Notes under the pieces: model-generated
Databases searched by the model: none
Told to the model about the DNA's origin: nothing
Seen by the model: only the letters and a program-made list of their open reading frames with translations
Program-made: the position numbers and the translations under genes
Source: an uncultured Gammaproteobacteria bacterium
GTDB taxonomy: Bacteria; Patescibacteriota; Microgenomatia; Levybacterales; GWA1-39-11
Assembly: GCA_964531275.1 (NCBI GenBank)
Contig: CAZHDZ010000001.1
Coordinates: 144,945 to 208,944 of the forward strand
Direction of reading: 5' to 3'
DNA: 64,000 nt
In this document: one piece after another, positions 1-43,315 of the stretch
Numbering within the stretch: the stretch's first letter is position 1
How the letters are laid out: the number at the start of each line of letters is the position of its first letter

Positions 1-451
1 CTCCACTCACATTGGACTTGATGAAGTTGATTCTGGTCAATTTGATAAAGAGGAAAGTATATCCTTTGCAACTGGAGCCTGCCTTTTGTTAAAGCGTGAT
101 GTTATAGATGATTTAGGTCTTTTTGACGAGAGATACTTCTTATACTATGAAGACGCTGATTTAAGCACGAAACTTATTAAAAATGGATATAAGCTGTTAT
201 ATATACCAAAAGGGATTGTTTGGCATAATAACGCAGGTTCTTCTGGTTCGGGGTCGGCTCTTCACGATTACTATTTAACCCGCAACAAGCTAATTTTTGG
301 TATGAAATATGCAAGTCCCAAAGTAAAAATTTTGCTTATGAAAGAGGCAGCAAGAATATTACTGAGTGGGCGAGAATGGCAAAAAAACGCAGTGAAGGAT
401 TATATTATTCGCAAGCTTGGAAAAGGAAGTTATGCGCCTAAAAAAGCATGA
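1..451 (+). CDS. Glycosyltransferase family 2, C-terminal part (5'-truncated by the window edge; the reading frame is open from nt 2)
   Basis: The in-frame translation from nt 2 reads ...SFATGACLLLKRDVIDDLGLFDERYFLYYEDADLS..., which is the classic GT2 C-terminal catalytic region (acceptor loop plus the ED motif). The stop overlaps the next gene's start (ATGA). Confidence 0.75.
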   Translation, partial: STHIGLDEVDSGQFDKEESISFATGACLLLKRDVIDDLGLFDERYFLYYEDADLSTKLIKNGYKLLYIPKGIVWHNNAGSSGSGSALHDYYLTRNKLIFGMKYASPKVKILLMKEAARILLSGREWQKNAVKDYIIRKLGKGSYAPKKA

Positions 452-2094
452 AAAATAAATTGTTATTTCTGGTCATCTTCTTAGGTTTACTTCCGTTATT
501 TAATCTTCTAACTCCTGGACTTCCAATAACACACGATGGAACTGATCACGTAGCTCGCATTGCAAATTTTTATACAGGTCTTTCAGATGGGGTACTATTC
601 CCTAGATGGGGTGGGAATTTGAACTGGGGTTATGGTCATCCCGTTATGATGTTTTTGTATCCATTTTCATCTTATTTGGCTTCCTTTTTTCATTTAGTAG
701 GATTCACATTTGTAGATTCACTGAAAATATTATTTGCATTAGGATTTGTCGCAAGCGGAATAACAATGTATTTATGGGTAAAAGAACAATTCGGAGAAAA
801 ATACGCTGTGGTGAGCGCAGTAATTTATATGTACGCTCCTTATAGGTTTGTAGATCTCTATGTGAGGGGTGCAATAGGAGAGCATATGGCATTTATTTTT
901 CCGCCGCTAATTTTATATTTTGCATATAGATATTTTCAGGACAAACAATATGTGTGTCCGTCGCTTATTGGTATAAGCATATCTTTTGGCCTATTACTAC
1001 TTGCCCATAATGCGATTAGTCTAATGTTCTTTCCTGTATTTTTTCTGTACGTTCTATTTTTGGGGTTAAGTCAAAAAAAATATAAGAAGTTCGTTTTTAT
1101 TGGCCTATCATTTTTGATTGGGTTTTTACTTTCTTCTTTTTTTGTTATTCCAGCTTTCTTAGAAGGTAAATTTACCTTGCGAGATATTGTAACTGGAGAG
1201 GAGTATAAGGATCGATTCATCACGAATCCGCTTTCCTTATTGTATGGAGGATGGAATTATGGAATTACGGGTCAATTTACTACACAAATTGGGTTAGTAA
1301 ATATATTAGGATTGATACTTTCTCCGATATTCTTTTTAAGAAGTAAATCAAAAGAAATGCGAATATTCTTTGGCATTATATTGTTATTGATAGCTTCCTC
1401 GTTATTTCTGACAATTTCATATTCGAATTTTATTTATGATTTAATAACCACATTTAAGAAGTTCCAGTTTCCATGGAGGTTCTTGAGTCTATCTGTATTC
1501 TTAACTGCCGTTCTAACACCAGCAGTTCTTCTTACCATCAAAGACAAAAAGCTACAAAAAATACTCATGGTTTTACTGATACTTATTGCCATTATTCCTA
1601 CCGCTACATATTGGAGAGCAAAGGAGTATAAGACAATTCCAGACTCTTTCTATGAAGGCATATACTACGGTACAACAGACACCGGAGAAAGCGCCCCCAT
1701 ATGGTCAGTAAGATTTATGGAAAGGGTTCCGACTGCACAATCCGAAATTATTGAAGGGAGTGGAAGCATAAAGACAATTAATAGATCGTCTATAGTCCAT
1801 GAATATGAAATAGAAGCCTTCACAAAGTTAAGAGTGAGGGAAAATACGCTATATTTTCCGGGATGGAGCGTGCTTGATAACGGAAAAAAATTAGAAATTG
1901 AATTCCAGGACCCATCGAATAGAGGGCTTATAACGTATTATCTAGAACCTGGCACTCATCAGATAAAGATTGTATTCTTAGATACAAAATTGAGGTCATT
2001 TGCCAATGCACTTTCGATACTTTCCTTAGTAAGTATTATCGGTATGTGCATTTATTTTATTTATCAAAAGTATGGCGCAAGCAAGAAAAAATAA
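448..2094 (+). CDS. Polytopic membrane glycosyltransferase-like protein (GT-C fold), YfhO-like, with an extracytoplasmic C-terminal domain and a C-terminal TM anchor
   Basis: 548 aa with more than 10 predicted TM helices. The C-terminus (YFPGWSVLDNGKK...LEPGTHQIKIVF plus a hydrophobic tail) matches the C-terminal motif shared by the YfhO-like paralogs at 2072, 6542, 37827 and 41462. It is ATGA-coupled to the upstream GT2. Confidence 0.55.
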   Translation: MKNKLLFLVIFLGLLPLFNLLTPGLPITHDGTDHVARIANFYTGLSDGVLFPRWGGNLNWGYGHPVMMFLYPFSSYLASFFHLVGFTFVDSLKILFALGFVASGITMYLWVKEQFGEKYAVVSAVIYMYAPYRFVDLYVRGAIGEHMAFIFPPLILYFAYRYFQDKQYVCPSLIGISISFGLLLLAHNAISLMFFPVFFLYVLFLGLSQKKYKKFVFIGLSFLIGFLLSSFFVIPAFLEGKFTLRDIVTGEEYKDRFITNPLSLLYGGWNYGITGQFTTQIGLVNILGLILSPIFFLRSKSKEMRIFFGIILLLIASSLFLTISYSNFIYDLITTFKKFQFPWRFLSLSVFLTAVLTPAVLLTIKDKKLQKILMVLLILIAIIPTATYWRAKEYKTIPDSFYEGIYYGTTDTGESAPIWSVRFMERVPTAQSEIIEGSGSIKTINRSSIVHEYEIEAFTKLRVRENTLYFPGWSVLDNGKKLEIEFQDPSNRGLITYYLEPGTHQIKIVFLDTKLRSFANALSILSLVSIIGMCIYFIYQKYGASKKK

Positions 2095-4423
2095 CCATTT
2101 CTTATCAGAGTACCTAAAAATGTTAAGAGCTTTTAAATATTTCATTCTGATATTTATAGCTTGGGGGATATTCTCTTCTCCCTTTCTTTTCTTAGGCAAA
2201 ACTCCTTTCCCCTCTGATTATCAAGTAAATTTTTTTCAGCCTTGGACTCAATACCCAGGGATGGCAGGTCCCGTAAAGAACAATGCACAGCCTGATATTG
2301 TTGGTCAAATTTATCCATGGAGGTATTTTGCAATCGATCAACTAAAACATGGTTCAGTGCCATTCTGGAATCCATATAGTTTTGCGGGAACGCCCCATCT
2401 AGCAAATTATCAGTCCGCTGTTCTTTCTTTTTACAATATTTTTTTCCTACTTCCCATAAAATTTATAACTGCGTGGGGAGTGCTCGTATTGCTACAACCA
2501 CTTCTTGCGGGTATATTTACCTATCTTTTTGCAAGAACCCAAAAAATATCAGAGTTAGGTAGTCTACAAGCTGCCATCTCCTTTATGTTTTGCGGCTTTA
2601 TCGTTACATGGATGGGCTATGCAACCTTAGCCTATGCCATACTCCCATTGCCGTTAGCATTTTTTGCTATTGAGAAATTTGTTGGTTCTCAAAGACATAG
2701 GTACGCGATTCTATTATCATTTTGCATTCCGCTCTCTTTTTTTAGCGGTCATTTTCAAACAAGCCTGTACTTTTTAGGTGGGGTAATATTTTATCTAATT
2801 TTTAACTCTATCGTATCGAAAGAGAAAAAGAGATACCTTCATTTATTTGTATATATATTTTTTGGTATTTTATTATGTGCACCACAGGTATTGCCTTCCA
2901 TAGAGTTTTACACCCAAAGCGTGCGAAGCGGATTATTCCAAAAATTTGAGGCAATTCCATGGGGATATTTGCCGACATTTATCGCACCTGATTACTATGG
3001 CAACCCAGTTACAAGAAATGACTGGTTTGGCCATTACGCAGAGTGGAATGGTTATTCAGGCGCAATTACAATTCTTTTGGCATTAGGATCAGCTTTTGTT
3101 GTCAGGAATAAAAAAGTCATATTTTTTGTTTTCTTGCTTATTTTGTCTTTGCTTCTTGCATATGATACACCCCTTTTAACGTTGTTGGTCAATCTAAAAG
3201 TGCCTGTTCTTTCAACGAGTGCAGCAAGTAGGATTGTGGTTTTATTTAGTTTTTCAGTAGCTATATTAAGTGGTTTTGGAATCGATGCGATTACAACAGC
3301 ACTTTCTAAAAGAAGTAAAAAGGTGATCTTGATTGCATCTATTTTTCTTTGTGTATTATTGCTAGTTGCTGTTTTTCCTTTTCTTGGTGTGTTGCCAACA
3401 GATAAAGCTCTAATTGCAAAGAAAAATATGATACTGCCTGTCGGCATTTCAGTATTTGCTATTGTGCTTTTAGCTTTTGCCTATCTTAAAAATACAGGCA
3501 AGATATTTAGAATTCTTCTCATGGGTGTTGTTATTTTATCTCTATTAGAGATGCTACGATTCTCTACCAAATGGCAATCTTTCAATGATACAAAGCTGGC
3601 TTACGTGTCTGTACCTATTACAAAATTTTATAACTCAATGAATCACTACGATCGAGCTATTGGACTTTCAGGGGGAGAAGATGCAGTTTATTATAAAGTA
3701 CCTATTTTAAGAGGGTACGACCCTCTGTACATTGAGCGATATGGAGAGTATGTTGGTTATGTTGCTTATGGAAAGTTGCAGCCACCAGAAAGATCAGTAG
3801 TGAATTTTCCCATAGCTTCAGATAGAACTGCACAAGCTATCTCATTTTTAGGAGTAAAAACTGTTGTCCATAAAATATCTGATGGAACATTCCCATGGGC
3901 ATTTCCATTCGATAAGTATCCACTTCAGCAATTTACAAAAGTATATGAAGATTCAGCATATAGAGTCTTTAGGAATAATAGTGCCCAGGACAAAGTATTT
4001 GTCGTTAATGATGTAAAAATTGTAAAAGAAAAGCAAAAGGCTTTAGACCTTTTATTTTCCTCTGATACAAAAAATACGGCTGTAGTTTCAGAAGAAATTG
4101 GACAAATTGATGCAGCTTCATTGTCATCAGCTAAAGTCGAAAAATATGAACCCAACAGAATAGAAATAAAAGCAAAATCTACGGGAAATAGTTTGCTAGT
4201 ACTTACCGATAATTATTATCCAGGCTGGAAGGCAACGGTTAATGGTATTTCTTCAAAAATTTATATAACTAATTACTCTTTTAGGGGGGTAGTAATACCA
4301 GAAGGTGAAAGTAAGGTCATCTTTTCTTACTTGCCTGAAAGCTTCATGATTGGGGTCTATGTATCTCTTATCGGATTAATGGGTATAATAATTCTTGGAA
4401 TACTGCGGATATTTAAAAAATGA
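2072..4423 (+). CDS. YfhO-family membrane glycosyltransferase-like protein
   Basis: 783 aa. The N-terminal loop reads QPWTQYPG...YPWRYFAIDQLKHGSVPFWNPYSFAGTPHLANYQS, a YfhO-type WNPY..G.P motif. It has many TM helices. The C-terminus reads TDNYYPGWKATVNG...FRGVVIPEGESKVIFSY plus a TM anchor. Confidence 0.7.
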   Translation: MAQARKNNHFLSEYLKMLRAFKYFILIFIAWGIFSSPFLFLGKTPFPSDYQVNFFQPWTQYPGMAGPVKNNAQPDIVGQIYPWRYFAIDQLKHGSVPFWNPYSFAGTPHLANYQSAVLSFYNIFFLLPIKFITAWGVLVLLQPLLAGIFTYLFARTQKISELGSLQAAISFMFCGFIVTWMGYATLAYAILPLPLAFFAIEKFVGSQRHRYAILLSFCIPLSFFSGHFQTSLYFLGGVIFYLIFNSIVSKEKKRYLHLFVYIFFGILLCAPQVLPSIEFYTQSVRSGLFQKFEAIPWGYLPTFIAPDYYGNPVTRNDWFGHYAEWNGYSGAITILLALGSAFVVRNKKVIFFVFLLILSLLLAYDTPLLTLLVNLKVPVLSTSAASRIVVLFSFSVAILSGFGIDAITTALSKRSKKVILIASIFLCVLLLVAVFPFLGVLPTDKALIAKKNMILPVGISVFAIVLLAFAYLKNTGKIFRILLMGVVILSLLEMLRFSTKWQSFNDTKLAYVSVPITKFYNSMNHYDRAIGLSGGEDAVYYKVPILRGYDPLYIERYGEYVGYVAYGKLQPPERSVVNFPIASDRTAQAISFLGVKTVVHKISDGTFPWAFPFDKYPLQQFTKVYEDSAYRVFRNNSAQDKVFVVNDVKIVKEKQKALDLLFSSDTKNTAVVSEEIGQIDAASLSSAKVEKYEPNRIEIKAKSTGNSLLVLTDNYYPGWKATVNGISSKIYITNYSFRGVVIPEGESKVIFSYLPESFMIGVYVSLIGLMGIIILGILRIFKK

Positions 4424-5175
4424 ACAATTTAACAGTAATAATTATCTCAAAAAATGACGAAGAAGTTCTTCCTGAAGCCATAGCCTCTGCAAAAGGTTTT
4501 GGGGAGATAGTAGTAATTGATGCAAGCAACACAGATGATACTCAGCAATTATGCATGAAGCTTAAAGTAAAATGTGTGAGGCATACTTTCAAAGATTTTG
4601 CCGATCAAAGAAATTTTGGTATGTACCATGCATTTAACGAGTGGGTGCTTTTTCTTGACTCTGATGAGAGACTGACTGATCCATTTAAGAAAGAGGTACT
4701 ATCCGTTATCAAGCAATATAATCCTGATAGTGAGATAGCTGGACATTTTATTCATAGAAAGACATTTTTTTATGGAAAAGATTGGAATTTTAGTGATCGC
4801 GTACAGAGACTTTTTTATAGAAAGAAGTTTATCGAATGGGAAGGCGTTGTCCATGAAACCCCAAAAGTAAATGGCAAATTAGGACAGATCGAGGCTCCCG
4901 TTCTTCATTTTACACACAGGCATTTATCTCAAATGGTAAAAAAAACAAACGAATGGTCTTTATATGAAGCAAAATTGAGGATCACCGCACAACATCCTAG
5001 ACTTGCGCCATGGCGCTTCCTAAGAGTGATGGGAAGTGAATTCATAAATTCTTATGTTAAAAATAAGGGCTATAAAAACGGAACACACGGGCTTATTGAA
5101 GGAATTTATCAGTCTTTTTCTATATTTATAACGTATGCAAAGCTTTGGGAACTCCAGCAACAAAAGAAGATTTAG
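4420..5175 (+). CDS. Glycosyltransferase family 2 (WaaE/KdtX-like small GT2)
   Basis: The N-terminus is TVIIISKNDEEVLPEAIASAKGFGEIVVIDASNTDDT, and LDSDE serves as the DxD motif. It is a paralog of the ORF at 21416..22195. Confidence 0.8.
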   Translation: MNNLTVIIISKNDEEVLPEAIASAKGFGEIVVIDASNTDDTQQLCMKLKVKCVRHTFKDFADQRNFGMYHAFNEWVLFLDSDERLTDPFKKEVLSVIKQYNPDSEIAGHFIHRKTFFYGKDWNFSDRVQRLFYRKKFIEWEGVVHETPKVNGKLGQIEAPVLHFTHRHLSQMVKKTNEWSLYEAKLRITAQHPRLAPWRFLRVMGSEFINSYVKNKGYKNGTHGLIEGIYQSFSIFITYAKLWELQQQKKI

Positions 5176-5417
5176 TTTTTTCTAAAATTTAACCACGAAG
5201 AGATTTCCGCAAGTGTCAGTCTTTTCTTAGCAAATTTGAAAAGATAAAGAATTTCAACAATTCCAAATTCGTTAATAGGGATTAATACAAATAGCACAAT
5301 AAACCAGTTACGCTGCTTTCCTTGGGATGCTCTCCAAAGTGCAAACCCTTTTATCGAAAGTTGTATAACAGAAATTATAATAATAAGTGTAAGACTTAAT
5401 GGATCCGGTGTTTTCAT
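5172..5417 (-). CDS. Small hydrophobic protein (2 predicted TM helices), hypothetical
   Basis: An 81-aa minus-strand ORF fills the otherwise empty 308-bp gap between two + strand genes. It is hydrophobic (IIIISVIQLSIKGFALW...FIVLFVLIPINEFGIVEILYLF). No clear SD sequence is present. Confidence 0.35.
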   Translation of the reverse strand: MKTPDPLSLTLIIIISVIQLSIKGFALWRASQGKQRNWFIVLFVLIPINEFGIVEILYLFKFAKKRLTLAEISSWLNFRKN

Positions 5418-5483
5418 AATTAAACTCTAGCATATGAGCTTTTCTTGTGCAATATTGATAGAATATAAAAAAGGATAGAAAGT

Positions 5484-6548
5484 ATGAATATAGGAATTTA
5501 TTCGCCGTATTTAACGACATTAACAGGTGGAGAGAAGTATATATTTACGGCTGCGTCCTGTCTTGCATCTGAGCATAAAGTGTCAATTTTTTGGGATGAC
5601 CCTGATATATTGGAGAAGGCTTCAAGAAAATTTGATCTGGATCTTTCAAAAGTTACCGTTGTCCCTAGTTTATTTTCAGAAAAGACCTCTTTTTTTAAAA
5701 GATTTTTTTCTACGTTCAAATACGACCGTTTGTTGTACCTTTCAGATGGTAGTATCCCAATTGTTCCTTGCCGACTTCTTATACATTTTCAATTTCCTGT
5801 AGAGTGGCTAGATACAAACAGCTTTATTTTTCTTTTTAAAAAGTCGAGGATTTCCAAGATAATATGCAACTCTCATTTCACAAAGCACTTTATTGACAAA
5901 AAATTTAATACTGAAAGTTTTGTGCTGTATCCCCCAGCCTCCACAAATAAAGAAGAAATTGCAGAAAAAGAAAAAATCATACTTACCGTAGGAAGATTTA
6001 GTATGCTTCCGAACGGGACAGATTTTAAAAAACTCTCCTCACTTGTTGAGTCCTTTAAGAAATTTCAGAAAAAAAGACTGAAGGGATGGAAAATGGCCAT
6101 TGTTACAAGTGTTTCTGACGACTCGCTGGAAGCATACAATCAATTCGAGTCAAGCATCAAGAGTTCTTACATAACAGTATATAAAAATGCAGAACACCAA
6201 AAAATTGTTGAGTTGTATAAAAAAGCAAGTATTTATTGGCATGCATCTGGGTTTGGAGAAGACTTGCAGAAGTACCCAGAAAGAGCAGAACATTTCGGTA
6301 TTTCAACCGTTGAGGCGATGTCGTTTGGCGCAGTCCCTATTGTAATTAATTCAGGAGGTCAACCTGAGATTGTGAAGAATAAAGAAAATGGATTTCTATG
6401 GAATGACCAAGAAGAGCTTATAAATCAAACACATAAAGTAGCAGTAGATCAAGATCTGTATAAAAAAATTCAAGAGAGTGCGATTGAGTCTTCACAAAGA
6501 TTTACCAAAGAAAGATTTTGCGAAGAGCTTAGTCATCTCATATGGTAG
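5484..6548 (+). CDS. Glycosyltransferase family 4 (GT-B, retaining)
   Basis: The C-terminal domain motif is EHFGISTVEAMSFGAVPIVINSGGQPEIVKNKENGFL (E-x7-E). A good RBS (AAGGA) lies 8 nt upstream of the ATG. Confidence 0.8.
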   Translation: MNIGIYSPYLTTLTGGEKYIFTAASCLASEHKVSIFWDDPDILEKASRKFDLDLSKVTVVPSLFSEKTSFFKRFFSTFKYDRLLYLSDGSIPIVPCRLLIHFQFPVEWLDTNSFIFLFKKSRISKIICNSHFTKHFIDKKFNTESFVLYPPASTNKEEIAEKEKIILTVGRFSMLPNGTDFKKLSSLVESFKKFQKKRLKGWKMAIVTSVSDDSLEAYNQFESSIKSSYITVYKNAEHQKIVELYKKASIYWHASGFGEDLQKYPERAEHFGISTVEAMSFGAVPIVINSGGQPEIVKNKENGFLWNDQEELINQTHKVAVDQDLYKKIQESAIESSQRFTKERFCEELSHLIW

Positions 6549-8770: not shown

Positions 8771-8772
8771 AA

Positions 8773-11662: not shown

Positions 11663-11664
11663 CC

Positions 11665-19732: not shown

Positions 19733-19746
19733 ATGTATATCTAAAG

Positions 19747-25482: not shown

Positions 25483-25543
25483 TTTTTTCTTCTTTAAGGT
25501 CATTGCTTAATAACGCGAGCTAACTTAAAATAGCAGAAAGTCG

Positions 25544-27424: not shown

Positions 27425-27461
27425 CAGAGAGCTAAATATTGTGTAATCTAGACGAATTGAA

Positions 27462-29317: not shown

Positions 29318-29330
29318 TACAATGCAATCC

Positions 29331-30797: not shown

Positions 30798-30799
30798 AA

Positions 30800-32287: not shown

Positions 32288-32289
32288 TA

Positions 32290-33249: not shown

Positions 33250-33321
33250 ATGTCCTTGATTGTAGACAAAGAATATGGTTTTATCAATATGTTAGTTTGG
33301 TAAGATAATTAAGATATTATT
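33250..33321. promoter_or_regulatory. AT-rich divergent intergenic region, probable bidirectional promoter region
   Basis: This is the only divergent junction in the window (a minus-strand SDR operon faces the + strand methyltransferase operon). The 72 bp are AT-rich. No confident -35/-10 pair was identified. Confidence 0.3.
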
Positions 33322-34020: not shown

Positions 34021-35027
34021 AAAAAGTGTCAATAATAATCGTAAATTGGAATGGTCTTTCACATTTAAAAAAGTGCTTGCCAACACTCAAGAAAGTCACG
34101 TACAAGAACTTAGAGATTATACTCGTAGATAATGCTTCAAAAGATGATTCAGTTGCGTATGTTACCAAAAACTTTCCAAATATTAAGATAATTAAATGTA
34201 AAAAAAATCTAGGTTTCGCCGGTGGCAATAATGCAGGACTACCAGCAGTTACAGGGGATTATGTGCTTCTCCTTAATAATGACACAGTTGTTACCAAAGA
34301 TTTCGTAACAGAGTTGGTTGCGGCAGTGGAGGAAGACGATGAAATCGGGATAGTTCAGAGCAAAATACTATCTATGGATTATCCAAATAAGCTCGATTCA
34401 GTAGGTGCATTTTTAACATATACCGGCTTTTTATATCACTACGGGTATTTCCAGATTGATAAACGGAAATATGACAAGACAAAGTATCTTTATACTGCAA
34501 AAGGGGCATGCATGTTGGTGCGAGCAGACTTAATAACTCGGCTAGGACTTTTTGACGATGACTTCTTCGCATATTTTGAAGAAACAGACCTGTGCAATAG
34601 AGTTTGGATGGCAGGATATACCATAGTGTATGCTCCCAAATCTGTCATATATCATAAGGTTGGTGGCACGTCTAATGGAATGGAAAATGCATTTATTCAA
34701 TTTCATTCATTCAAAAATAGAATCAACTCTTATATTAAAAACCTAGAAGTAAAGAACTTAGCGTTAATATTACCCATTCACATTATTCTTTGTGAAGTGG
34801 CCGCAATTAGTTTTATTTTCAAATCAAGAATAGATTTATTTATGGCAATTAACAAAGCACTTCTATGGAACATAGCCAATCTTGAAAAGACATTAGCGAA
34901 AAGAAAGAAAATTCAAAAAATGAGAAAAGTATCTGATAGTGAATTTTTTCCAAAGGTTTTGAGAAATCCAAATCTTAATTACTATTATTCCCTATTTGCT
35001 AAAAGCTTGATAGGCTATAAGGAATGA
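34017..35027 (+). CDS. Glycosyltransferase family 2
   Basis: The sequence contains VSIIIVNWNGLSHLKKCLPTLKKVTYKNLEIILVDNASKDDS and DTDLCNR. Confidence 0.8.
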   Translation: MKKVSIIIVNWNGLSHLKKCLPTLKKVTYKNLEIILVDNASKDDSVAYVTKNFPNIKIIKCKKNLGFAGGNNAGLPAVTGDYVLLLNNDTVVTKDFVTELVAAVEEDDEIGIVQSKILSMDYPNKLDSVGAFLTYTGFLYHYGYFQIDKRKYDKTKYLYTAKGACMLVRADLITRLGLFDDDFFAYFEETDLCNRVWMAGYTIVYAPKSVIYHKVGGTSNGMENAFIQFHSFKNRINSYIKNLEVKNLALILPIHIILCEVAAISFIFKSRIDLFMAINKALLWNIANLEKTLAKRKKIQKMRKVSDSEFFPKVLRNPNLNYYYSLFAKSLIGYKE

Positions 35028-37063
35028 AAAAATATCTACTTTTTCTTGTATTCCTTGGACTAACATTCCTCTACTACCACAAAACTCTGAGCTCGTATTT
35101 CGAAGGTGATGAGTGGTTTTATTTCTCGGAATACTTTCCGCTTTTGATTAATCCATTTCTAGGTTTTTTCGTGGCTATTACGAAAGGAGTAACTGATGCA
35201 TATTGGATTTCAGCGGGCGGTCATGTTACGCCGTTGCAAAGTTTGCTTTGGTTTTTTCTCATAGTATTTTTCAAGCTCAACTTCAAGTTCTATGCTGTAA
35301 GCTCGTTAGTTTTGCATGCAGTGAATGTATTTTTGCTCTATGCATTAACAAAACAAATAATAAAAGATAAATTTTTCGCCTTCTGTGTAGCTGCTTTTTT
35401 TCTTACGAACTCTGCCCATTTCCAAGCAGTCAATTGGGCTATGGTTATAGTCTATGACCTTTTTCTAACAACTCTAATTCTTTTGTCTTTGCTGAGTCTT
35501 TTAAAATTTGGAAAGAATCAGCGATGGGTAGTTATCTCTACTGTTTGTTTTGTAAGTGCTCTTATGATTAAAGAAACAGCTGCCATCTTATTTATTATCT
35601 ATCCATTATTCTCTGCTTTTTTTAAGGCTAAGTATTTTAAAAAAAGCTTGTTTGTAACTGCTGCAATCTTTGTGTCCTACGTGCCCTTTAGATTCATTCT
35701 CCCACGTTTTTTTTCTGAGGGTAAACTGTTTCAAAACAATCTTGAGATAGGAATAAAAACTCTCCAAGATTTTCAACTTATTGTTACTAATATGTTTGTG
35801 CAGGATATTTACCCTTCAACGCTTGGATTGATTAAGATTCACCCCATGAATATGGTTGTTGTAGCTGCTTTAATTCTGGGAATGGTCTTGTTCAATCGTC
35901 AATATATGGGTGCAAGGATTGTTGTTTTTGGTATAGCAATTACACTTCTGAATGCTTCTTTAATTCTTCTTACTTCCCTCTTTTCACCCAGGCAACTTTC
36001 TTTTGAAATTGTTGATTCTAGATATTTATATTTAGTTTCAATTAGCGTTTCTTTAATAATTATAGGTATATATGTGATTATTATTGAAGGTTTAGCCATA
36101 AAGACTAAGTTGCGATATGTCCCTTTGTCCTTATTAGTTTTTCTCATGGCAATATTTAATTACAATTTATTGCAAAGAATATTAACGCCATATGTTGAGA
36201 CAGCCAAGATGAGACAGGATATTCTCAATTCTATTTTTGATGAAGTTAAGACACCTAGCGATAGATCAATTTTTTTGGTAGAAAGTAGCGGAAATTATTA
36301 TGGCTTTGCTCAGATTCCGCCATTTCAAACAAATCTAGGGCAAGTGCTTGCAGTTCACTATTTTAGCAGTGGAAATCTAAATAAAAGATTTATAAATGAT
36401 AGATCAGTACAAAAGAATCCGCTAGACAAAAATTGGCTTCTTGTTGATGGAAATAAGTCATTTGGATATTACCTCAGTAGAGAGCAGCTTATACAAGATG
36501 CACTGAAATTTAATATAAGCCCTCAAACTGTTCATGCATACACATGGGAGCCTGAGGAGAAAAAACTTGAAAGAAATACAGAAAAATTCATTCCAGAGTT
36601 AGAGCTAGAACTTTCTCAGAGACAACAACTACGTGAATGGAAGAAAGTACATCTTGATAGTTTTAGTTTTAAGATAGACCCATCCTATTCTGAAACGCAT
36701 TTAGGGCAGGATTCAGTAGTTCTAGGACATAATGAAACAATAACTGTTAAACGCATGACTAAGGATCCATCTATTTTTTTCCATGACTTTGCTCCTAGTA
36801 TATTTGACAGCAATGGAGACAAGATCTTAGACAGGACAAAGTTGTTAAATATTACTAAAGAAAATGGCGAGTTGGTAACTACACTCTATGTTCTTTCAGG
36901 AAACTACCCAATGTATTTGATTCCAATTAGTGATGGTATTTCTTATATAGAAATTTCAGCTAATGGGAATAGGTTCTATAGAGACGTCGACTCGCTCGAT
37001 GAAGAAAAAAGAAATAGTTTTATTGAGTTAATAATCAAATCTATTATTCTTAAGAGTTCTTGA
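35024..37063 (+). CDS. Polytopic membrane protein with a large soluble C-terminal domain (GT-C-like, family uncertain)
   Basis: 679 aa. The N-terminal roughly 390 aa are hydrophobic. The C-terminal roughly 290 aa are hydrophilic. Confidence 0.5.
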   Translation: MKKYLLFLVFLGLTFLYYHKTLSSYFEGDEWFYFSEYFPLLINPFLGFFVAITKGVTDAYWISAGGHVTPLQSLLWFFLIVFFKLNFKFYAVSSLVLHAVNVFLLYALTKQIIKDKFFAFCVAAFFLTNSAHFQAVNWAMVIVYDLFLTTLILLSLLSLLKFGKNQRWVVISTVCFVSALMIKETAAILFIIYPLFSAFFKAKYFKKSLFVTAAIFVSYVPFRFILPRFFSEGKLFQNNLEIGIKTLQDFQLIVTNMFVQDIYPSTLGLIKIHPMNMVVVAALILGMVLFNRQYMGARIVVFGIAITLLNASLILLTSLFSPRQLSFEIVDSRYLYLVSISVSLIIIGIYVIIIEGLAIKTKLRYVPLSLLVFLMAIFNYNLLQRILTPYVETAKMRQDILNSIFDEVKTPSDRSIFLVESSGNYYGFAQIPPFQTNLGQVLAVHYFSSGNLNKRFINDRSVQKNPLDKNWLLVDGNKSFGYYLSREQLIQDALKFNISPQTVHAYTWEPEEKKLERNTEKFIPELELELSQRQQLREWKKVHLDSFSFKIDPSYSETHLGQDSVVLGHNETITVKRMTKDPSIFFHDFAPSIFDSNGDKILDRTKLLNITKENGELVTTLYVLSGNYPMYLIPISDGISYIEISANGNRFYRDVDSLDEEKRNSFIELIIKSIILKSS

Positions 37064-37141
37064 AATTATTGCAAGCATTATTTCGTTATCACTTTAAAGA
37101 AAAACATCATAAGTGATTCTATTAATAGCGTTATTATTATG

Positions 37142-37147
37142 TATAAT
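37142..37147 (+). promoter_or_regulatory. Candidate -10 element (TGTATAAT context) 8 nt upstream of the ATG at 37156
   Basis: TATAAT, preceded by TG, lies in the 92-bp gap that breaks the coupled gene chain. The -35 is weak (CTATTA/TTCTAT). It would give a near-leaderless mRNA. Confidence 0.25.
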
Positions 37148-37155
37148 CAATTGAA

Positions 37156-37830
37156 ATGAAAGCAAAAAAATTTGAAGAGTCTTATTTTAAAGGGTGGTAT
37201 AAGAGTGCTGTTGGCAATTTTACAGCAGAAGATTTAAAAATTTCGAAGCGTTGGTTTTACGCTTGGCTTGTAAAGCTTAATGAATATGTGCCTTTACAAA
37301 AGGGTCATGGGAAGAGGGTTCTTGAGATAGGTTGTTCCATAGGTGCAGTATCTAACTTGCTTTCTGAAAGAGGGTTTAGTGTTTGGGCAACAGACATCTC
37401 AAGTTATGCAGTAAAAAAAGCTCAGAAATTGACTCCAGCTGCTAAATTTTCAGTTTTAGATATTCAGCAAAAGATAACTCTAAAAGAGAAATTTGATTAC
37501 ATTATCGCATTTGAAGTTGTAGAGCATTTAGACAAACCAGAGAAGAGTATAAAGAATATGTATGATGCACTTATACCACGGGGGAAAGTAATCGTTTCAA
37601 CACCTTTTCCGTATCCTTGGAATTTTCGAGACCCAACCCACATAAATGTTAAATACCCAAATGAATGGGTTGCTATCATGAAAGAGGTAGGATTTAAAAA
37701 GGTGTCATATCATAGATTTACCCTTATACCATTCTTCTACAGATTTAATAAAAGATTTCAATTTATAATTCCATTTGCTATACCGCTCCCATATTTAAAC
37801 AGTCCTATTTTCTTTATTGGTACTAAATGA
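37156..37830 (+). CDS. Class I SAM-dependent methyltransferase
   Basis: Motif I is VLEIGCSIGAVSNLLSERGFSVWATDIS, and the post-I motif is IIAFEVVEHL. Confidence 0.7.
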   Translation: MKAKKFEESYFKGWYKSAVGNFTAEDLKISKRWFYAWLVKLNEYVPLQKGHGKRVLEIGCSIGAVSNLLSERGFSVWATDISSYAVKKAQKLTPAAKFSVLDIQQKITLKEKFDYIIAFEVVEHLDKPEKSIKNMYDALIPRGKVIVSTPFPYPWNFRDPTHINVKYPNEWVAIMKEVGFKKVSYHRFTLIPFFYRFNKRFQFIIPFAIPLPYLNSPIFFIGTK

Positions 37831-40800
37831 AACGAATCAAAAGAAGCAGGGTCGAGATTATCGTTATTATTTTGCTTGGATTAATTCCGTTGCTGTGGTT
37901 TCGTGGCACAGAAGTTATATTAGGACATGATTCAGGTCTACCTCTATCACCGATACCCCACTTCTTAGACCGTCTATACGCATGGACTGTAAGATTTGGA
38001 TTTGGCAACGATCAGACATATGCAATTCCCGGCTTCTTTATTCATGGTTTGGAAGCTTTAGTTTCTTCCTTGGGATTTGATTTGCAGTCAATGCAAAAAA
38101 TTACTTTTTCCATTTGGTTTGTTCTCCCCGGAGTTACTATGTATTACTTAGGAAGCCGTCTTGAAAAAAAACTAAAGATTAATTTTCTAAGTCTGCCTGC
38201 AGCAGTTTTTTACATGATTAATCATTTTTTATTGCAGGGATGGTTTGTGGCAGAAAGAACTAAATTTTCAGTATATGCTGCGCTTCCTCTCATGATAGCG
38301 ATCCTATTAGATTGGAGTGACGGAAGGAGGAAGACGTTTACCGCTGCCGTATTAATTGCTCTGATATTTTTTGTACTGAATGGTTTGGCAAGCTTACCAC
38401 TATTTGGAGGGGTGATTATTGCCTTGATTGTTTTTATTTTTTACTATTTATATCAGCAGTTTTCATGGATAAGGATAGGATCACTCTTTCAACTTTTTGG
38501 TGTAACGTTAGTAGTAAGCGTTGCGCTTCATGCATACTGGCTGGTACCTTTTGTATTTTCATTAAAAACTTCCTATAGCGAGTCTGTGACTTTTTTTGGC
38601 GGGAAGGAGGGAATTCTTGATTGGGTAAAATACGCAAGCCTTAATAGCTCCTACAATAATCTATTGCGCCTGCAAGGGGTTCCTGAGTGGTACCAAAATC
38701 CTGGTCACCCATATGCAAATAATTTCTTAACTAATCCTCTGCTTATTTTTATTAGTGTTGCAATCCCCATTTGTGTTTTTTCAACACTTCTTATTTTTAA
38801 GAAGAGCGCTGAAAAAAAAGTAATACTTTTTTTTGGCCTTCTGGCTATAGTCTCTTTGCTATTCGTTGCAGGTGCACATCCACCTTTCGGAACTTTGTAT
38901 ATTTTCTTAATGCAAAATATTCCAGGGTTTATAGCATTCAGAAATCCATTCTACAAATTTTCTCCCTCATTATGGCTTGCATATGCTGTTCTTATTGGCT
39001 TTTTTATAAGCTTTATCATGAGTAGGGTCGTTGTAATAAACAAAAAAATTGCTTATGTTTTTTATTCGTTCGTAATAATTGGAATAGTACTTTATAGCTA
39101 CCCATTCCTTAATGGTACTTTTTTTGATTATGTTAAAAACGAACGCTCAAATAGAGTTGTGGTTCCATCCTATATTATGGACTTTGGTAAATGGAGTGAG
39201 AGTAGGGAGAGGATAGATAAAAAAACTTTAATGTTGCCCCCTCCGAATATTGATGGAACTGTGGAGGAATACACCTGGGGATATTGGAGTCTAGCACCAA
39301 TCAGTACGCTTTTGACAAATGCTCCAATTCTTAATAATAGCCTGTTCCTGGGTAAAAACGAAAAGACCATGCTTACCACTCTATATTCAATGATGGAAAA
39401 GGATGAGCAAGGTTGGGAACAGCTAGCTAAAATAATGGGGATAGACTCTTTTGTTGTAAGAGATGATTTTGTTTGGGATAATCCCTCTTCGCCTTCAGTA
39501 AATCCTGCCGTTTATCAAAAAGCATTAACATCCAAAAATGTTCAAAAGGTAAAAGAATTTGAGAAGTGGCATATATACGATCTCAAAGAAGGACGGGATG
39601 ATTTTCTCCAATATAACACCTATTCTTTTGTAGCCGGTGATGTAGGAACTATTGGAAAAATTGCATCTCTTCCTGGGTATTCTTATGAAGAGCCTTTAGT
39701 AGCAGATACGAACGGAAATAGTTTGCTCAAAATGAGTCCAAACACCTACTATCTTGATAGTTATTGTGTGATGTGTGATTTGCAGTGGAAATTTATAAAT
39801 ACACTTGCTTATACACCAACAATTACGCAAGGGTCATTTATGTACCCTATCATAGGGAGGAATGTGTATCAAGAAATTTCTTTGCTGGATCAACCGCAGG
39901 AACTGGCTATATATTATTCAGAAAAGGCGCTGCGAGATATATTAGGTCTACAAAAAAGTATTGATTTAGCAGAAAAAGATGACGTTTTAAAAGAGATAAT
40001 AACCGACATCGAGGAGGACTTATTTAATATAAGAAGAACGGTGCAGTTAAGTCAAAATGAAATTAATAATGTCACGAAACTAGACATACTATCATTCATA
40101 AGAACGCAAAAAGTAGTTATTAGCCAAATTAAGGAAAAAAATTTAAGTTCGATTTCTATGGATAAGATGCTTAAGGCAATCGAAATTAATGAAAGTTTTT
40201 TAAATCAAATTACCTTTAGAACCTCATCAGAAACAAAGAAGCAACTATTGGTAACTTCGCCAATAGCCCATGAATATAGTGTGTATTATCGACCTAATGA
40301 TAATATTGAAGATAGCAATTCTGTAAGCATTTCAATAAATAATCAGCAGCTTATTTTACCTGTTCTTGAAGAAGATGGGCGGTGGAGAAAGCTTTCTGAA
40401 GTAAATTTAAATAAAGGTCTGAATACTATAGTTGTTCAACAGCCAATTAATGATATTCAGAAGCAAAAATCAGTCAGGCTTGTTGAGTCAACCAATGGTT
40501 GTTATTATTCCGAGAAGATTGATTCAAAACGTGGAGATATATTTAAGCTTACATTTGATCATAGACTTTTATCCAGCTACGATAAGTTCTTCGTAACATT
40601 TGTACCTGCTGGAGAAAGCGTTGATAAGGCACCTAGTATAGATTCTCTAACATCGGTAAAAGGCAGTAGACTCTATGAGACTACATACGCGCCAATTGCT
40701 GGACGTAGCTTTCAATTCGTTATTTGTAACACTTCTATACACAATGACCCTAAGCATTCCGATATACAAATTGAGAATATAAGTATGCGAAAAATAGCTG

Positions 40801-41144
40801 TTCCGGACCTGATATTTGTTAAACAAGGAGCTCAGTCAAAATCTAGCCAACCAAGAATTCTAGAGAGAAGCAATACTTCATACACACTAGAAGGGACAAA
40901 TGTGAATGGATCCAGCGTTCTTACTTTTTCCCAATCGTACAATAATAATTGGAAAAGTGACACATATGAGCACTTTATTGTTAATGGTTTCTCTAATGGA
41001 TGGATTTTGCCTAGTGAGACTCAGAAAGTACGTGTAAAATACAAGATACAGGACTTATTTATCATTGGAGTAACGATCACAAGTATTTCGTTGGTAGGGA
41101 CTCTAATTATTTTAATAGGTATTTATAAAAAACGATCTAAATGA
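37827..41144 (+). CDS. Giant (1105 aa) YfhO-like membrane protein: an N-terminal GT-C-type polytopic module, an extracytoplasmic domain of roughly 650 aa, and a C-terminal TM anchor
   Basis: The N-terminal roughly 430 aa have more than 10 TM helices. The C-terminal end (SQSYNNNWKSD...NGFSNGWILPSETQKVRVKY plus IIGVTITSISLVGTLIILIGIY) parallels the YfhO-like C-terminal motif. An AftD-like (DUF3367) architecture is possible but unverified. Confidence 0.55.
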   Translation: MKRIKRSRVEIIVIILLGLIPLLWFRGTEVILGHDSGLPLSPIPHFLDRLYAWTVRFGFGNDQTYAIPGFFIHGLEALVSSLGFDLQSMQKITFSIWFVLPGVTMYYLGSRLEKKLKINFLSLPAAVFYMINHFLLQGWFVAERTKFSVYAALPLMIAILLDWSDGRRKTFTAAVLIALIFFVLNGLASLPLFGGVIIALIVFIFYYLYQQFSWIRIGSLFQLFGVTLVVSVALHAYWLVPFVFSLKTSYSESVTFFGGKEGILDWVKYASLNSSYNNLLRLQGVPEWYQNPGHPYANNFLTNPLLIFISVAIPICVFSTLLIFKKSAEKKVILFFGLLAIVSLLFVAGAHPPFGTLYIFLMQNIPGFIAFRNPFYKFSPSLWLAYAVLIGFFISFIMSRVVVINKKIAYVFYSFVIIGIVLYSYPFLNGTFFDYVKNERSNRVVVPSYIMDFGKWSESRERIDKKTLMLPPPNIDGTVEEYTWGYWSLAPISTLLTNAPILNNSLFLGKNEKTMLTTLYSMMEKDEQGWEQLAKIMGIDSFVVRDDFVWDNPSSPSVNPAVYQKALTSKNVQKVKEFEKWHIYDLKEGRDDFLQYNTYSFVAGDVGTIGKIASLPGYSYEEPLVADTNGNSLLKMSPNTYYLDSYCVMCDLQWKFINTLAYTPTITQGSFMYPIIGRNVYQEISLLDQPQELAIYYSEKALRDILGLQKSIDLAEKDDVLKEIITDIEEDLFNIRRTVQLSQNEINNVTKLDILSFIRTQKVVISQIKEKNLSSISMDKMLKAIEINESFLNQITFRTSSETKKQLLVTSPIAHEYSVYYRPNDNIEDSNSVSISINNQQLILPVLEEDGRWRKLSEVNLNKGLNTIVVQQPINDIQKQKSVRLVESTNGCYYSEKIDSKRGDIFKLTFDHRLLSSYDKFFVTFVPAGESVDKAPSIDSLTSVKGSRLYETTYAPIAGRSFQFVICNTSIHNDPKHSDIQIENISMRKIAVPDLIFVKQGAQSKSSQPRILERSNTSYTLEGTNVNGSSVLTFSQSYNNNWKSDTYEHFIVNGFSNGWILPSETQKVRVKYKIQDLFIIGVTITSISLVGTLIILIGIYKKRSK

Positions 41145-41458
41145 AAAATATTTCAAAATTTGTGCTATGTTCTCTAATAACGCTCACTGTTTATTTTGCG
41201 TTGCAATTACCATATATTAACATTCTCCAAATCTTCTTTACCGGATTTGTTCCTTTAACGTTCTTAATTTCTTTTCTCATGCTGTTTCGGCCAAGCAAAA
41301 AGAAAATTCTTATGAGTGCGCTGCTAATGCTTTTCTTTAATTTATTCTTCATTCTTTTTAGAAACCAAGAGATTGCAGAACATATAGCAGTTTTAAGTTA
41401 TTTCTTAATATTCTTATATATTGTGCTTTCACTTCCCGTTCTTAAAAGCAAAAAATAA
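41141..41458 (+). CDS. Small membrane protein (3 predicted TM helices), hypothetical
   Basis: 105 aa and hydrophobic. It is ATGA-coupled to the giant upstream gene. Confidence 0.45.
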   Translation: MKNISKFVLCSLITLTVYFALQLPYINILQIFFTGFVPLTFLISFLMLFRPSKKKILMSALLMLFFNLFFILFRNQEIAEHIAVLSYFLIFLYIVLSLPVLKSKK

Positions 41459-41461
41459 AAT

Positions 41462-43315
41462 ATGGATATTGTAAGAGGTGACTGGAGATTCTTCTGGCCG
41501 GATAGCTTGTTATCTTTCATTGGGATTCCATCCGCCTGGGATTCATCACTTAATACAGGTCTTGGAATGCAAGCAACGAATACGATGTGGATTACTAGCT
41601 ATCTACATCTATCAGCCACAATTTCTAGTCTGGGCTTGGGATGGCTCTGGACAACATTTTTATTTTGGCTTATTCCGATTATTCTTATATCAATTCTTTC
41701 ATCATATTTTTTATCCAGGTATGTGCTTCGCAATAAATCGCCCTTACTATCTCTTGTTTCAGGTGTAATTTATGCAACAAATACTTATTTTCTATTAATT
41801 TTCTTTGGTGGTCAGTTAGGTGTTGCGTTTGCATACTCTTTGGCTCCCGTCGTTATTCTTTCCTATTTATATTATGCGGAAAAAATAACCTTAAGCCGAG
41901 GGATTTTAGTTGGTATCGTAGCTGCAATACAATTAGTATTTGATCCGCGCCTTACGATGCTTACTCTTTCTGCCGCATATGCAGTTCTACTTATTAGTCG
42001 AATAGGGCTTCTGAAACTCCTTAAAATTTCTATAGTACCGGTTATAGTTGCTCTTTCCTTGCATGCCTTCTGGATAATACCGACAATTCTTTTCCACTCA
42101 AAAACGCCGTATGAAATGCAATCAGGTGCAACCGTCTCTTTTTTAAGTTTTGCCTTATTGGAAAATACAATAAGTCTTTTGCATCCCAATTGGCCTCAAA
42201 ATATATTTGGCAAGGTTTATTTCATGAAACCCGAATATTTAATTATTCCAATTATTGCATATCTGCCTATTGTGTTAGGTAAATCAAAAGAAGTAAGAAA
42301 AGAATTACTCGCATTCGCCTTCATTGCGCTTATCGGAGCGTTTTTGGCAAAAGGTGTAAATGAACCATTTGGCTTTGTTTATCAATTTATGAGTGGCTAT
42401 ATTCCCGGATTTACAATGTTTCGGGATCCAACAAAATTTTACTTATTAATTGCACTTTCCTATTCAGTTCTCATCCCCTATGGGATTTATACGGTATATG
42501 GTTTTTGCAAGAAGAGATTTAATGGAAAAATAGTATTAAACCACTTAATACTGTTATTTTTAGCGATATGGATCTTTCTTCAGAGGGATGTTTTTCTCGG
42601 TACAGTACATACTCCATCTCCACAAAAAATACCTCCAGGCTATGAACGGCTTGCACAATTTATAAGTAATCAGAATAATGACTTTCGTACTCTTTGGATT
42701 CCCCAATGGCAGAGATATGGATATTTTTCAAATCAGAATCCTGCTATTGGCAGAGGTGAAATTCCTATGAATAAAATAAACGACGAAAGACTTGATCTTC
42801 ATTCGATAAAGTATGTCATGGTCCCATTTGATTCAGAGGGCGAGATATTCATAAATGACGGAAAATACTCCGAGAAGCTTTTCAAAGATACAGTCCAAAA
42901 GATTCAAATTCTACCTTATCTCAGGCAAGTGGAAGAATTCGGAAAAATTATAGTTTTTGAGAACTTCGATTTTAGAAAAAGATTTTATGTTAGCGACAGT
43001 TCTTCTGATATTACTTTTTCAAGAAAGAATTCTATCTATGATCTAATACTCAATAAAACAAAAGACAAGAAAACCATTGTATTTACTGATAATTATTCTC
43101 AATATTGGTATGCTTCGTACCAAAATAAAACTTTTAAGTCTCAGAATTATCGGGGAGTAAATAGTTTTATAATACCAGGAGACGTAACTCAGATACGAAT
43201 TAGTTACGGGGTACAAAAAGTGGTTAATATTAGTTTTATTATTAGTCTACTGTCTTTATTTTTTCTATTAGGTTTTTTGGCGTTTTCAAAAATAAAAAAT
43301 GATAAAACTCACTAA
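41462..43315 (+). CDS. YfhO-like polytopic membrane protein with a C-terminal beta-sandwich-like domain and a TM anchor
   Basis: 617 aa. The C-terminus reads TDNYSQYWYASYQNKTFKSQNYRGVNSFIIPGDVTQIRISY plus a hydrophobic tail. Confidence 0.55.
   Translation: MDIVRGDWRFFWPDSLLSFIGIPSAWDSSLNTGLGMQATNTMWITSYLHLSATISSLGLGWLWTTFLFWLIPIILISILSSYFLSRYVLRNKSPLLSLVSGVIYATNTYFLLIFFGGQLGVAFAYSLAPVVILSYLYYAEKITLSRGILVGIVAAIQLVFDPRLTMLTLSAAYAVLLISRIGLLKLLKISIVPVIVALSLHAFWIIPTILFHSKTPYEMQSGATVSFLSFALLENTISLLHPNWPQNIFGKVYFMKPEYLIIPIIAYLPIVLGKSKEVRKELLAFAFIALIGAFLAKGVNEPFGFVYQFMSGYIPGFTMFRDPTKFYLLIALSYSVLIPYGIYTVYGFCKKRFNGKIVLNHLILLFLAIWIFLQRDVFLGTVHTPSPQKIPPGYERLAQFISNQNNDFRTLWIPQWQRYGYFSNQNPAIGRGEIPMNKINDERLDLHSIKYVMVPFDSEGEIFINDGKYSEKLFKDTVQKIQILPYLRQVEEFGKIIVFENFDFRKRFYVSDSSSDITFSRKNSIYDLILNKTKDKKTIVFTDNYSQYWYASYQNKTFKSQNYRGVNSFIIPGDVTQIRISYGVQKVVNISFIISLLSLFFLLGFLAFSKIKNDKTH

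Follow-up and report, generated by a model that had tools for sequence, protein, structure and literature searches.

In Bacillus subtilis, the membrane protein YfhO, which works together with CsbB, has 13 transmembrane (TM) helices, the last two of which flank an outside loop of 389 aa (PMC5836110). Mycobacterial AftD comprises a GT-C glycosyltransferase core, carbohydrate-binding modules (CBMs), a 'structural beta-sandwich' that leads into the single helix TM12, and a C-terminal four-helix bundle (TM13-16) that binds the acyl carrier protein (ACP) and is needed for function; its published phylogeny is confined to Actinobacteria (bioRxiv 10.1101/2019.12.22.885152). A second protein of Mycobacterium tuberculosis, MmpA, shares the N-terminal 668 residues of AftD, is encoded nine genes from aftD and has been implicated in trehalose-lipid transport (PMC8698533). 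Here, we compared with these systems five membrane protein genes in a 64,000-nucleotide (nt) stretch of contig CAZHDZ010000001.1 (assembly GCA_964531275.1, positions 144,945 to 208,944), referred to as the window. The five open reading frames (ORFs), 448..2094, 2072..4423, 6542..8770, 37827..41144 and 41462..43315, are all present and are named below by their first nucleotide. The original prediction had taken them for five YfhO paralogues, which held for 2072 and 6542, both of which pass Pfam PF09586, but not for 448, a PF10131 protein, nor for 37827 and 41462, which are AftD-like and have no PF09586 match. We assign the folds and families with high confidence, and the five proteins are probably extracytoplasmic, polyprenyl-phosphate-sugar-dependent GT-C glycosyltransferases of three known families, encoded in two cassettes of a ~60-kb Microgenomates surface-glycan island. 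They share a common plan, consisting of an N-terminal GT-C core of ~11 helices with an Asp right after TM1 (THDG in 448, PSDY/PADT in 2072/6542, GHD in 37827 and GD in 41462), a variable outside part, a conserved beta-sandwich and a single helix leading back to the membrane.

The YfhO family is represented by 2072..4423 (+, 783 aa) and 6542..8770 (+, 742 aa), which reached 58.6 bits (5.5e-16) and 69.0 bits (3.7e-19), respectively, against the 28.5-bit gathering threshold of PF09586 in Pfam scans that took in 47 ORFs of the window. They are full-length paralogues (31% identity, blastp E 1e-105) and carry the post-TM1 Asp motifs PSDY and PADT. Hydropathy analysis of 2072 suggested a hydrophobic core to residue ~495, a soluble part from 496 to 759 and an anchor helix at 760-778 (nt 4349..4405), and a search of the PDB with the 2072 sequence alone returned nothing useful. 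The shared beta module lies at residues ~681-753 of 2072 (nt 4112..4330) and ~674-742 of 6542 (nt 8561..8767). The soluble domain is present in 6542, but this protein ends at 'FKDGLL' without a terminal anchor helix; the next gene (8773) begins 3 nt later, so that the missing helix is not hidden in another frame. Both proteins resemble B. subtilis YfhO in their PF09586 scores, in having a multi-TM core and a large outside domain, followed in 2072 by a last helix (topology from hydropathy), and in their synteny with a polyprenyl-phosphate-type GT2. They differ from it in the missing terminal helix of 6542 and in the occurrence of two paralogues in one cassette with further GT2 and GT4 genes.

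The 548-aa protein encoded by 448..2094 (+) belongs to PF10131 (PTPS_related; 2.5e-13, 49.8 bits against a gathering threshold of 26.4), a domain carried by all but one of its 120 closest homologues, and showed no match to PF09586 even at E<=10. Its TM core (residues 1-388), with an invariant THDG motif (28-31) after TM1, is followed in the AlphaFold model (predicted local distance difference test score (pLDDT) 84.6, predicted template modelling score 0.88) by a C-terminal beta-sandwich (432-510, nt 1741..1977) and an anchor helix (514-547, nt 1987..2088). The members of PF10131 are GT-C-fold membrane proteins whose function is uncharacterised, and 448 agrees with this family in scoring above its cut-off, whereas it matches profile positions 6-314 of 621 only and its outside part is shrunk to the ~80-aa sandwich. 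Foldseek also recovered the GT-C fold for the model, with AglB, PglB and STT3 giving the lowest E values (~1e-4) and AftD giving the best TM-score (0.47, root mean square deviation 6.0). The former matches raise the alternative that 448, and possibly the PMT_2-like paralogues of the window too, are protein glycosyltransferases of the oligosaccharyltransferase or O-mannosyltransferase type that modify surface-layer protein or pilin rather than polysaccharide. A weak PMT_2 match in 448, STT3 matches in some of its homologues and the six PMT_2-type genes in the same island are in line with this. However, in TM-score and deviation the model is closest to AftD and not to an oligosaccharyltransferase; 448 has only the ~80-aa sandwich in place of an oligosaccharyltransferase-type periplasmic domain, has no WWDYG-like motif region, and is embedded among cytoplasmic GT2 and GT4 enzymes typical of polysaccharide loci. 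We therefore consider protein glycosylation quite unlikely.

The 1105-aa giant, 37827..41144 (+), itself has no Pfam match, PF09586 included (E<=10), and its sequence alone retrieved nothing useful from the PDB. Among 27 aligned members of its family, 16 matched PF11847 (GT-C_AftD; best 2e-13), but 37827 did not, and some of its relatives are named 'alpha-(1->3)-arabinofuranosyltransferase family protein' by NCBI. The best PDB match of the family profile was AftD of M. abscessus (6w98/6wbx, E 5e-4) in three collinear segments: profile positions 447-581 align weakly with AftD 439-570, and the last segment, 1038-1113 against AftD 1198-1276, covers the tail motif ('ESINPGW...VNGWQQGWVLPAG..ITLTF') plus helix. 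Indeed, the AlphaFold model of the giant (pLDDT 85.6) matched AftD 6w98_A along the full chain (E 5e-18 in Foldseek, with 1445 alignment columns and a TM-score of 0.48/0.41), and the next matches, PglB, AftA and ArnT, were at 3e-4 or weaker, 14 orders of magnitude below AftD. These profile and model comparisons indicate that 37827 is a distant relative of mycobacterial AftD rather than a YfhO protein.

Further inspection of the model and family alignment resolved the giant into six parts. The GT-C TM core (residues 1-430, nt 37827..39116), also recognized by Foldseek, contains the invariant GHD (33-35) after TM1 and the most conserved loops. It is followed by the alpha/beta periplasmic domain of the GT-C super-domain (434-660, nt 39126..39806) with an invariant CxxC (C647, C650), a DUF5667-like four-helix bundle (673-795, nt 39843..40211; helices 690-713, 718-741, 748-771 and 779-795), two beta-sandwich modules of immunoglobulin (Ig)- or jelly-roll-like type (804-884 and 892-968, nt 40236..40730) with invariant C892 and C967, the shared beta-sandwich (979-1072, motif NNNW...NGFSNGWILP) and the anchor helix (1073-1104), the last two within nt 40761..41144. 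PF18915 (DUF5667) was matched in 7 of the 27 family members (best 1.9e-7). The TM core is the best conserved part (mean 0.61) and the central modules the least (0.33-0.38), the four-helix bundle being the most variable region (0.33), as would be expected if a conserved catalytic core were combined with variable recognition of acceptors. Weak Foldseek matches to CBM-bearing enzymes and jelly-roll proteins (4e-4 to 3e-2) fit sandwich folds, and by analogy with the AftD CBMs the two beta modules are candidate glycan-binding modules. When residues 660-975 (316 aa) were searched against 1.84 billion representative proteins, only 21 matches were found, nearly all of them at the equivalent position in proteins of this ~1100-aa family; in addition, residues ~797-873 hit tandem Ig_2/Big_6 repeats of unrelated proteins. 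The original prediction had described ~650 soluble residues without a recognisable family as a candidate new module. The lack of a Pfam match in 37827 and the nearly family-specific central 316 aa agree with the first part of that description, but instead of a single new module the region comprises a chain of GT-C periplasmic domain, helical bundle, Ig/jelly-roll sandwiches and shared sandwich laid out as in AftD, with the helical bundle as the one element absent from AftD. In some related genomes (L018, L020, L022, L032, L035 and L040), two full-length copies of the giant (~1030-1180 aa each) stand in tandem.

The 617-aa product of 41462..43315 (+) is a short AftD-like paralogue of the giant, with 26% identity over 326 aa of the membrane core (blastp E 4e-15). 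Profile comparison with hhalign aligned giant residues 67-630 with 39-545 of 41462 (99.9%) and 981-1104 with 492-614 (98.4%), so that 41462 equals the giant minus residues ~630-980; its shared module occupies residues 511-582 (nt 42992..43207) and its anchor helix residues 590-608 (nt 43229..43285). No match of 41462 to PF09586 was found even at E<=10. Most close homologues, like 41462, are without TM1 and start 6-8 residues (6 in 41462) before a conserved GD(W/F)RFFWPE that follows TM1 in the giant, and more distant homologues keep TM1. Between the two genes lies an unannotated ORF, 41141..41458 (+), found by ORF search and encoding a 105-aa membrane protein with 3-4 hydrophobic helices. It overlaps the stop codon of the giant and ends 3 nt before 41462, and its homologues directly follow a giant homologue in at least 24 related loci. 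In the family alignment, P24 and Y25 of its LPYINI motif are invariant. The protein has no Pfam or PDB match, and an assignment as a GtrA- or SMR-type flippase was dropped for want of such support. In the window the 105-aa ORF and 41462 share a frame (TAA AAT ATG); however, the frames differ in 10 of 15 related loci and all three stop codons occur, which shows that they are separate genes and not a split or read-through gene.

Alternatively, 41462 may lack catalytic activity and serve the giant as a scaffold or in the handling of lipids, comparable to MmpA, with the 105-aa protein as a third subunit. Its best NCBIfam match is indeed MmpA (NF053599, 1.2e-8), itself the short neighbour of an AftD (PMC8698533); besides TM1, 41462 lacks three residues that never vary in the giant family, E143, R144 and K146; and the giant, the 105-aa gene and 41462 are tightly coupled and co-conserved. 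On the other side, the MmpA score of 34 bits (18.7 bits for 37827) is far below the equivalog cut-off of 210 bits, more divergent homologues keep TM1, and the 41462 family conserves the GD motif and a PGFxxFRxxxKF loop, as a functional GT-C would, which makes a non-catalytic role doubtful. More speculatively, and in our view fairly unlikely as a whole, the giant, the 105-aa protein and the TM1-less 41462 could form a Microgenomates-specific multi-subunit GT-C machine of an AftD-type lineage outside Actinobacteria, in which the fast-evolving helical-bundle/Ig arm would recognise a surface polymer specific to the candidate phyla radiation (CPR) and the small protein would supply a function missing in 41462, for example insertion or docking of the first loop or flipping of the lipid-sugar.

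A related beta module of ~70-90 aa closes all five proteins, and a single hydrophobic helix follows it in four of them, 6542 being the exception, as had been predicted for 'most' members. Because pairwise blastp links between the C-termini are weak (E 2e-4 to 0.28), we weighed whether the likeness could be chance or compositional, arising from a hydrophobic tail and low-complexity AT-rich coding. Profile hidden Markov models of the C-terminal 140 aa were built for the 37827, 41462 and 448 families (116-119 homologues each, with the window's own proteins left out), and the 212 window ORFs of 60 aa or more were all searched with them. The 37827-family profile matched 41462 (1.7e-16), 2072 (3.5e-10) and 6542 (0.013); the 41462-family profile matched 37827 (1e-12), 2072 (5e-7), 6542 (2.7e-4) and 448 (0.03); and the 448-family profile matched 41462 (2.5e-5), 2072 (2.3e-4) and 6542 (1.9e-3), with no other ORF below 0.8. 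After removal of the terminal helix from the profiles, 37827 and 41462 still recognized each other (6e-7 both ways), their profiles matched 2072 and 6542 at 1.6e-4 to 6.6e-3, and the 448 profile matched 6542 (2e-3) and 2072 (3.3e-3), the best unrelated window ORF having E >=0.1. The trimmed 448 profile aligned with the 41462 profile at 80% probability but failed to match that of 37827, which speaks for the chance reading and, by these profiles, marks 448 as the weakest and most divergent sharer of the module.

Beyond the tail, full-length profile-profile alignments are collinear from the membrane core through the tail across the five proteins (95-99.9%), including 41462 against 448 (97.7%), 41462 against 2072/6542 (96.4%) and 448 against 2072/6542 (95%, core and tail alike). 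The models of both 448 and 37827 end in an eight- to nine-strand sandwich and a helix of ~30 residues. The PF09586 match of 2072 covers residues 679-765 and falls on the C-terminal end of the Pfam model (positions 744-835), and the module is thus already inside the YfhO definition. Since AftD has its sandwich before the single helix TM12 and YfhO a large outside loop before its last helix, the shared tail is a known architectural feature of these GT-C families and not a new one. As the independent family profiles cross-match exactly these tails, survive removal of the helix and are joined by collinear alignments, two models and the presence of the module in both the YfhO model and AftD, the chance explanation is effectively refuted. 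The tail module is thus homologous across the five proteins, as the related C-terminal motifs had suggested.

Two cassettes, each conserved independently of the other, hold the five genes. Cassette 1 (448 to ~11.6 kb) contains 448, 2072, 6542, cytoplasmic GT2 and GT4 genes and a Dpm1-like GT2 without TM helices (9702). A metagenome scan with 2072 and 6542 yielded 76 loci, 38 of which were at least 12 kb long and were used for counting. Their conserved order is two 448-like genes, a 9702-like GT2, a 21416-like GT2, a 34017-like GT2, the 4420 GT2, 2072, the 5484 GT4, 6542, the 8773 GT2, a second 9702-like GT2 and then 11665, 10427 or a PMT_2-like gene. A 448-like gene is present in 33/38 loci and a 9702-like GT2 somewhere in 32/38 (two genes after the 6542 homologue in 18), and the 8773 homologue directly follows that of 6542 in 25/38.

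Cassette 2 (~34 to 43.3 kb) consists of the GT2 34017, the GT-C-like 35024, the methyltransferase 37156, the giant, the 105-aa membrane protein and 41462. Scanning of a genome collection with the giant family gave 79 loci, and counts refer to the 73 with a full-length homologue. A 41462 homologue lies immediately downstream of the giant in 37 of these and within 10 kb in 46, and the commonest upstream neighbour, immediately adjacent in 32/73, is a homologue of the S-adenosylmethionine (SAM)-dependent methyltransferase 37156..37830 (+; Methyltransf_23, 1.2e-20). Two genes upstream of the giant, 35024..37063 (+) encodes a multi-TM protein of 679 aa that ends in a soluble tail of ~300 aa and has no Pfam match; it is related to GT-C enzymes by profile comparison (hhalign 96% against the PMT_2 paralogues of the window, 91.6% against the TM core of the 37827 family) and has homologues in 35/73 loci. 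Homologues of GT2 34017 occur in 40/73. A 9702-like GT2 is found within 10 kb in 32/73, often right after the 41462 homologue and often as a GtrB-like protein of ~305 aa with two TM helices, whereas a YfhO-like gene and a 448-like gene were each found in 1/73 giant loci. In the window, 37827 and 41462 lie 27 kb from the YfhO-like cassette. The predicted association of YfhO-like genes with a Dpm1-like GT2 is therefore supported for 448, 2072 and 6542 but not for 37827 and 41462.

This GT2, 9702..10430 (+), encodes a soluble or peripheral protein of 242 aa (Glycos_transf_2, 3.2e-34) resembling polyprenyl-phosphate sugar synthases of the Dpm1/AglJ/ArnC/GtrB type. It contains DDG and DAD motifs, and its best matches were AglJ (1.1e-33), ArnC (8e-22) and PgfS (5e-20) in NCBIfam, all below the equivalog cut-offs, and ArnC (9hwj, 1e-16), archaeal DPMS (5mlz, 4e-16, residues 8-220) and GtrB (5ekp, 1.6e-13) in the PDB. 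The prediction of a short Dpm1/CsbB-like GT2 is thus sound, except that the protein is without the membrane helices of CsbB and GtrB; in this it is like eukaryotic DPM1 and unlike GtrB, ArnC and CsbB. The gene overlaps 8773..9705 at its start and the beginning of 10427..11662 at its stop, the latter overlap suggesting translational coupling. Its placement 'directly between' YfhO-like and other GT-C genes was slightly loose, as another GT2, 8773..9705 (+), separates it from 6542. Two other candidates were set aside: 44759..45667, as a missing GtrB-like GT2 after 41462, had a weak GT2 match (1.5e-3) and spurious PDB matches, and 34017, as a polyprenyl-phosphate GT2, matched generic GT2 enzymes in the PDB. 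Flippase candidates are the Wzx-like protein 24229 or an unrecognised small membrane protein.

The same evidence bears on whether all five proteins are YfhO paralogues of one CsbB/GtcA/YfhO-type three-component system around 9702 that decorates a teichoic-acid-like polymer. The PF09586 scores of 2072 and 6542, precomputed PF09586 matches in a few 448 and 41462 homologues and the synteny of the 9702-like GT2 with 448, 2072 and 6542 homologues are compatible with such a system. Yet 448 belongs to PF10131, 37827 and 41462 match AftD by profile and fold, and the latter two form a distant cassette that has a YfhO-like gene in 1/73 relatives and often its own GT2. Moreover, the partner GT2 is without the two TM helices of CsbB and GtrB, no GtcA or GtrA was found in the window, and the 47 ORFs scanned include no teichoic-acid synthesis genes, three points in which cassette 1 departs from the YfhO/CsbB/GtcA system of lipoteichoic acid. 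We conclude that a single YfhO system has little probability and that three GT-C families in two cassettes account for the five genes; of the proposed donor-flippase-acceptor triad, the tie of the GT2 to 448, 2072 and 6542 stands, and the GtrA/GtcA flippase was not found.

On the preferred reading of the locus as a set of extracytoplasmic GT-C enzymes, cytoplasmic GT2 and GT4 enzymes would build a lipid-linked glycan, and 9702-type enzymes would charge polyprenyl phosphate with a monosaccharide on the cytoplasmic face. The lipid-sugar would then be flipped and used as a donor outside the membrane by the GT-Cs of cassette 1 (448, 2072 and 6542). The post-TM1 Asp of the THDG, PSDY/PADT, GHD and GD motifs is the putative catalytic residue, in 41462 as in the other four, and the outside domains may choose the acceptor. 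In the giant, the helical bundle and the two Ig/jelly-roll modules, which stand between the catalytic super-domain and the anchor, may hold a polymeric glycan acceptor in the manner of the AftD CBMs, and the C-terminal sandwich and helix would clamp the outside domain to the membrane beside the active site, as in AftD. We regard this donor and acceptor logic as moderately likely, the enzymatic roles being read from sequence, models and synteny, while homology, fold, domain order and gene order are direct results of the comparisons.

Several observations weigh against this reading. For 9702, the best NCBIfam score (116.9 bits, against an AglJ cut-off of 325) indicates likeness at the family level only, and no hydrophobic segment or TM helix was detected. 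No GtrA/GtcA (PF04138) or SMR flippase match was found among the window ORFs, the small intergenic multi-TM ORFs 41141, 44477 and 5172 (-) included, and the window encodes at least 14 GT-C-like proteins as potential users of the 9702 product. In 41462, with TM1 absent, no helix precedes the first loop, which would still have to lie outside, and the three residues invariant in the giant family are lost. As to the giant, the PF11847 scores of its relatives straddle the cut-off (e.g. 24.5 against 26), with no match for the giant itself; it ends after helix 1073-1104 without the TM13-16 ACP-binding bundle of AftD; and the essential D474/E475 of AftD align with Leu/Ala in the giant family, although the profile alignment is weak there.

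The remainder of the window (G+C ~0.35) is nearly wholly one + strand row of glycan-biosynthesis genes. The Pfam scans identified at least seven GT2 and several GT4 enzymes, sugar epimerases/dehydratases, DegT aminotransferases, acetyltransferases, two SAM methyltransferases, the Wzx-like MOP protein (24229..25482), an initiating Bac_transf (60261) and six PMT_2-type GT-Cs (13641, 15260, 16942, 18455, 19747 and 53398). A further multi-TM protein, 10427..11662 (+), is weakly GT87-like (GT-C; PF09594, 2.2e-5, 24.8 bits against a cut-off of 25), and multi-TM proteins without a Pfam match are encoded at 11665, 29295, 30800 (-), 35024, 46199 (-) and 50331. Among these, 11665..13644 (+), 29295..30797 (+), 30800..32287 (-) and 46199..47782 (-) encode proteins of 495-659 aa that all recur in related loci and are possibly further GT-C or Wzy-type enzymes. 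The ORF 50331..53516 (+) is a second giant of 1061 aa with ~20 or more hydrophobic segments and a weak IctB/O-antigen-ligase-like NCBIfam match (8e-7); in ~20 related loci it recurs on the downstream side of the AftD-like pair, accompanied by 45669, 47791, 48906, 49435 and the PMT-like 53398. The last of these (53398..54981, +) is listed with a TTG start that makes it overlap the end of 50331..53516 by 119 nt, and probably begins further downstream. A 70-aa hydrophobic ORF without a family match, 44477..44689 (+), starts 3 nt after a DegT aminotransferase gene. Minus-strand genes are few; the sole one in the first ~30 kb, 5172..5417 (-), lies in the gap between GT2 4420 and GT4 5484 and encodes an 81-aa DUF5652 protein (4.8e-15) with two to three hydrophobic helices.

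The nearest homologues of the five proteins come from metagenome-assembled genomes of Microgenomates-group Patescibacteria (Levybacteria, Daviesbacteria, Roizmanbacteria, Gottesmanbacteria and Woesebacteria). Among the closest genomic relatives, many (loci L001, L003, L004, L007 and others) are third-party annotation assemblies titled 'uncultured Gammaproteobacteria bacterium'. Because their gene content and nearest named relatives are those of Microgenomates/Patescibacteria, these titles look like a batch mislabel.

CPR bacteria (Patescibacteria) are uncultured, host-attached organisms with very small genomes. Against this background, it is of interest that a bacterium of this group spends ~60 kb and at least 14 GT-C-like genes on extracytoplasmic glycans, with one cassette pairing YfhO/PF10131 enzymes with a Dpm1-like donor synthase and another centred on an AftD-like enzyme, a type studied so far only in mycobacterial cell-wall synthesis. 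These genes are testable candidates for the building of the surface that mediates attachment in CPR bacteria. Neither the tail module nor YfhO, PF10131 or AftD-type GT-Cs are new, and some relatives already carry an automatic AftD-family annotation; our analysis corrects an over-broad 'YfhO' label and reveals no new mechanism. A search of the available literature found no paper on AftD-like enzymes or GT-C expansions in Patescibacteria.

Compared with AftD (PDB 6w98, 6wbx and 6wby), the family of the giant differs in module content and partners. Sequence identity is ~10%, the three CBMs of AftD are replaced by a four-helix bundle and two Ig/jelly-roll modules, and the host is a Patescibacterium in which the 47 window ORFs scanned include no DprE1/DprE2 or UbiA-type arabinose-donor genes. 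Nevertheless, both proteins have the same order of a ~11-helix GT-C core, an alpha/beta domain, beta modules, a final sandwich and a single re-entry helix. Of the essential AftD residues K39, D41, E251, K361 and D474, the place of D41 after TM1 is taken in the giant by the invariant GHD (33-35), and that of D474, in the weak profile alignment, by Leu. Each of the two proteins is accompanied by a short paralogue encoded nearby, MmpA in the case of AftD and 41462 in the case of the giant.

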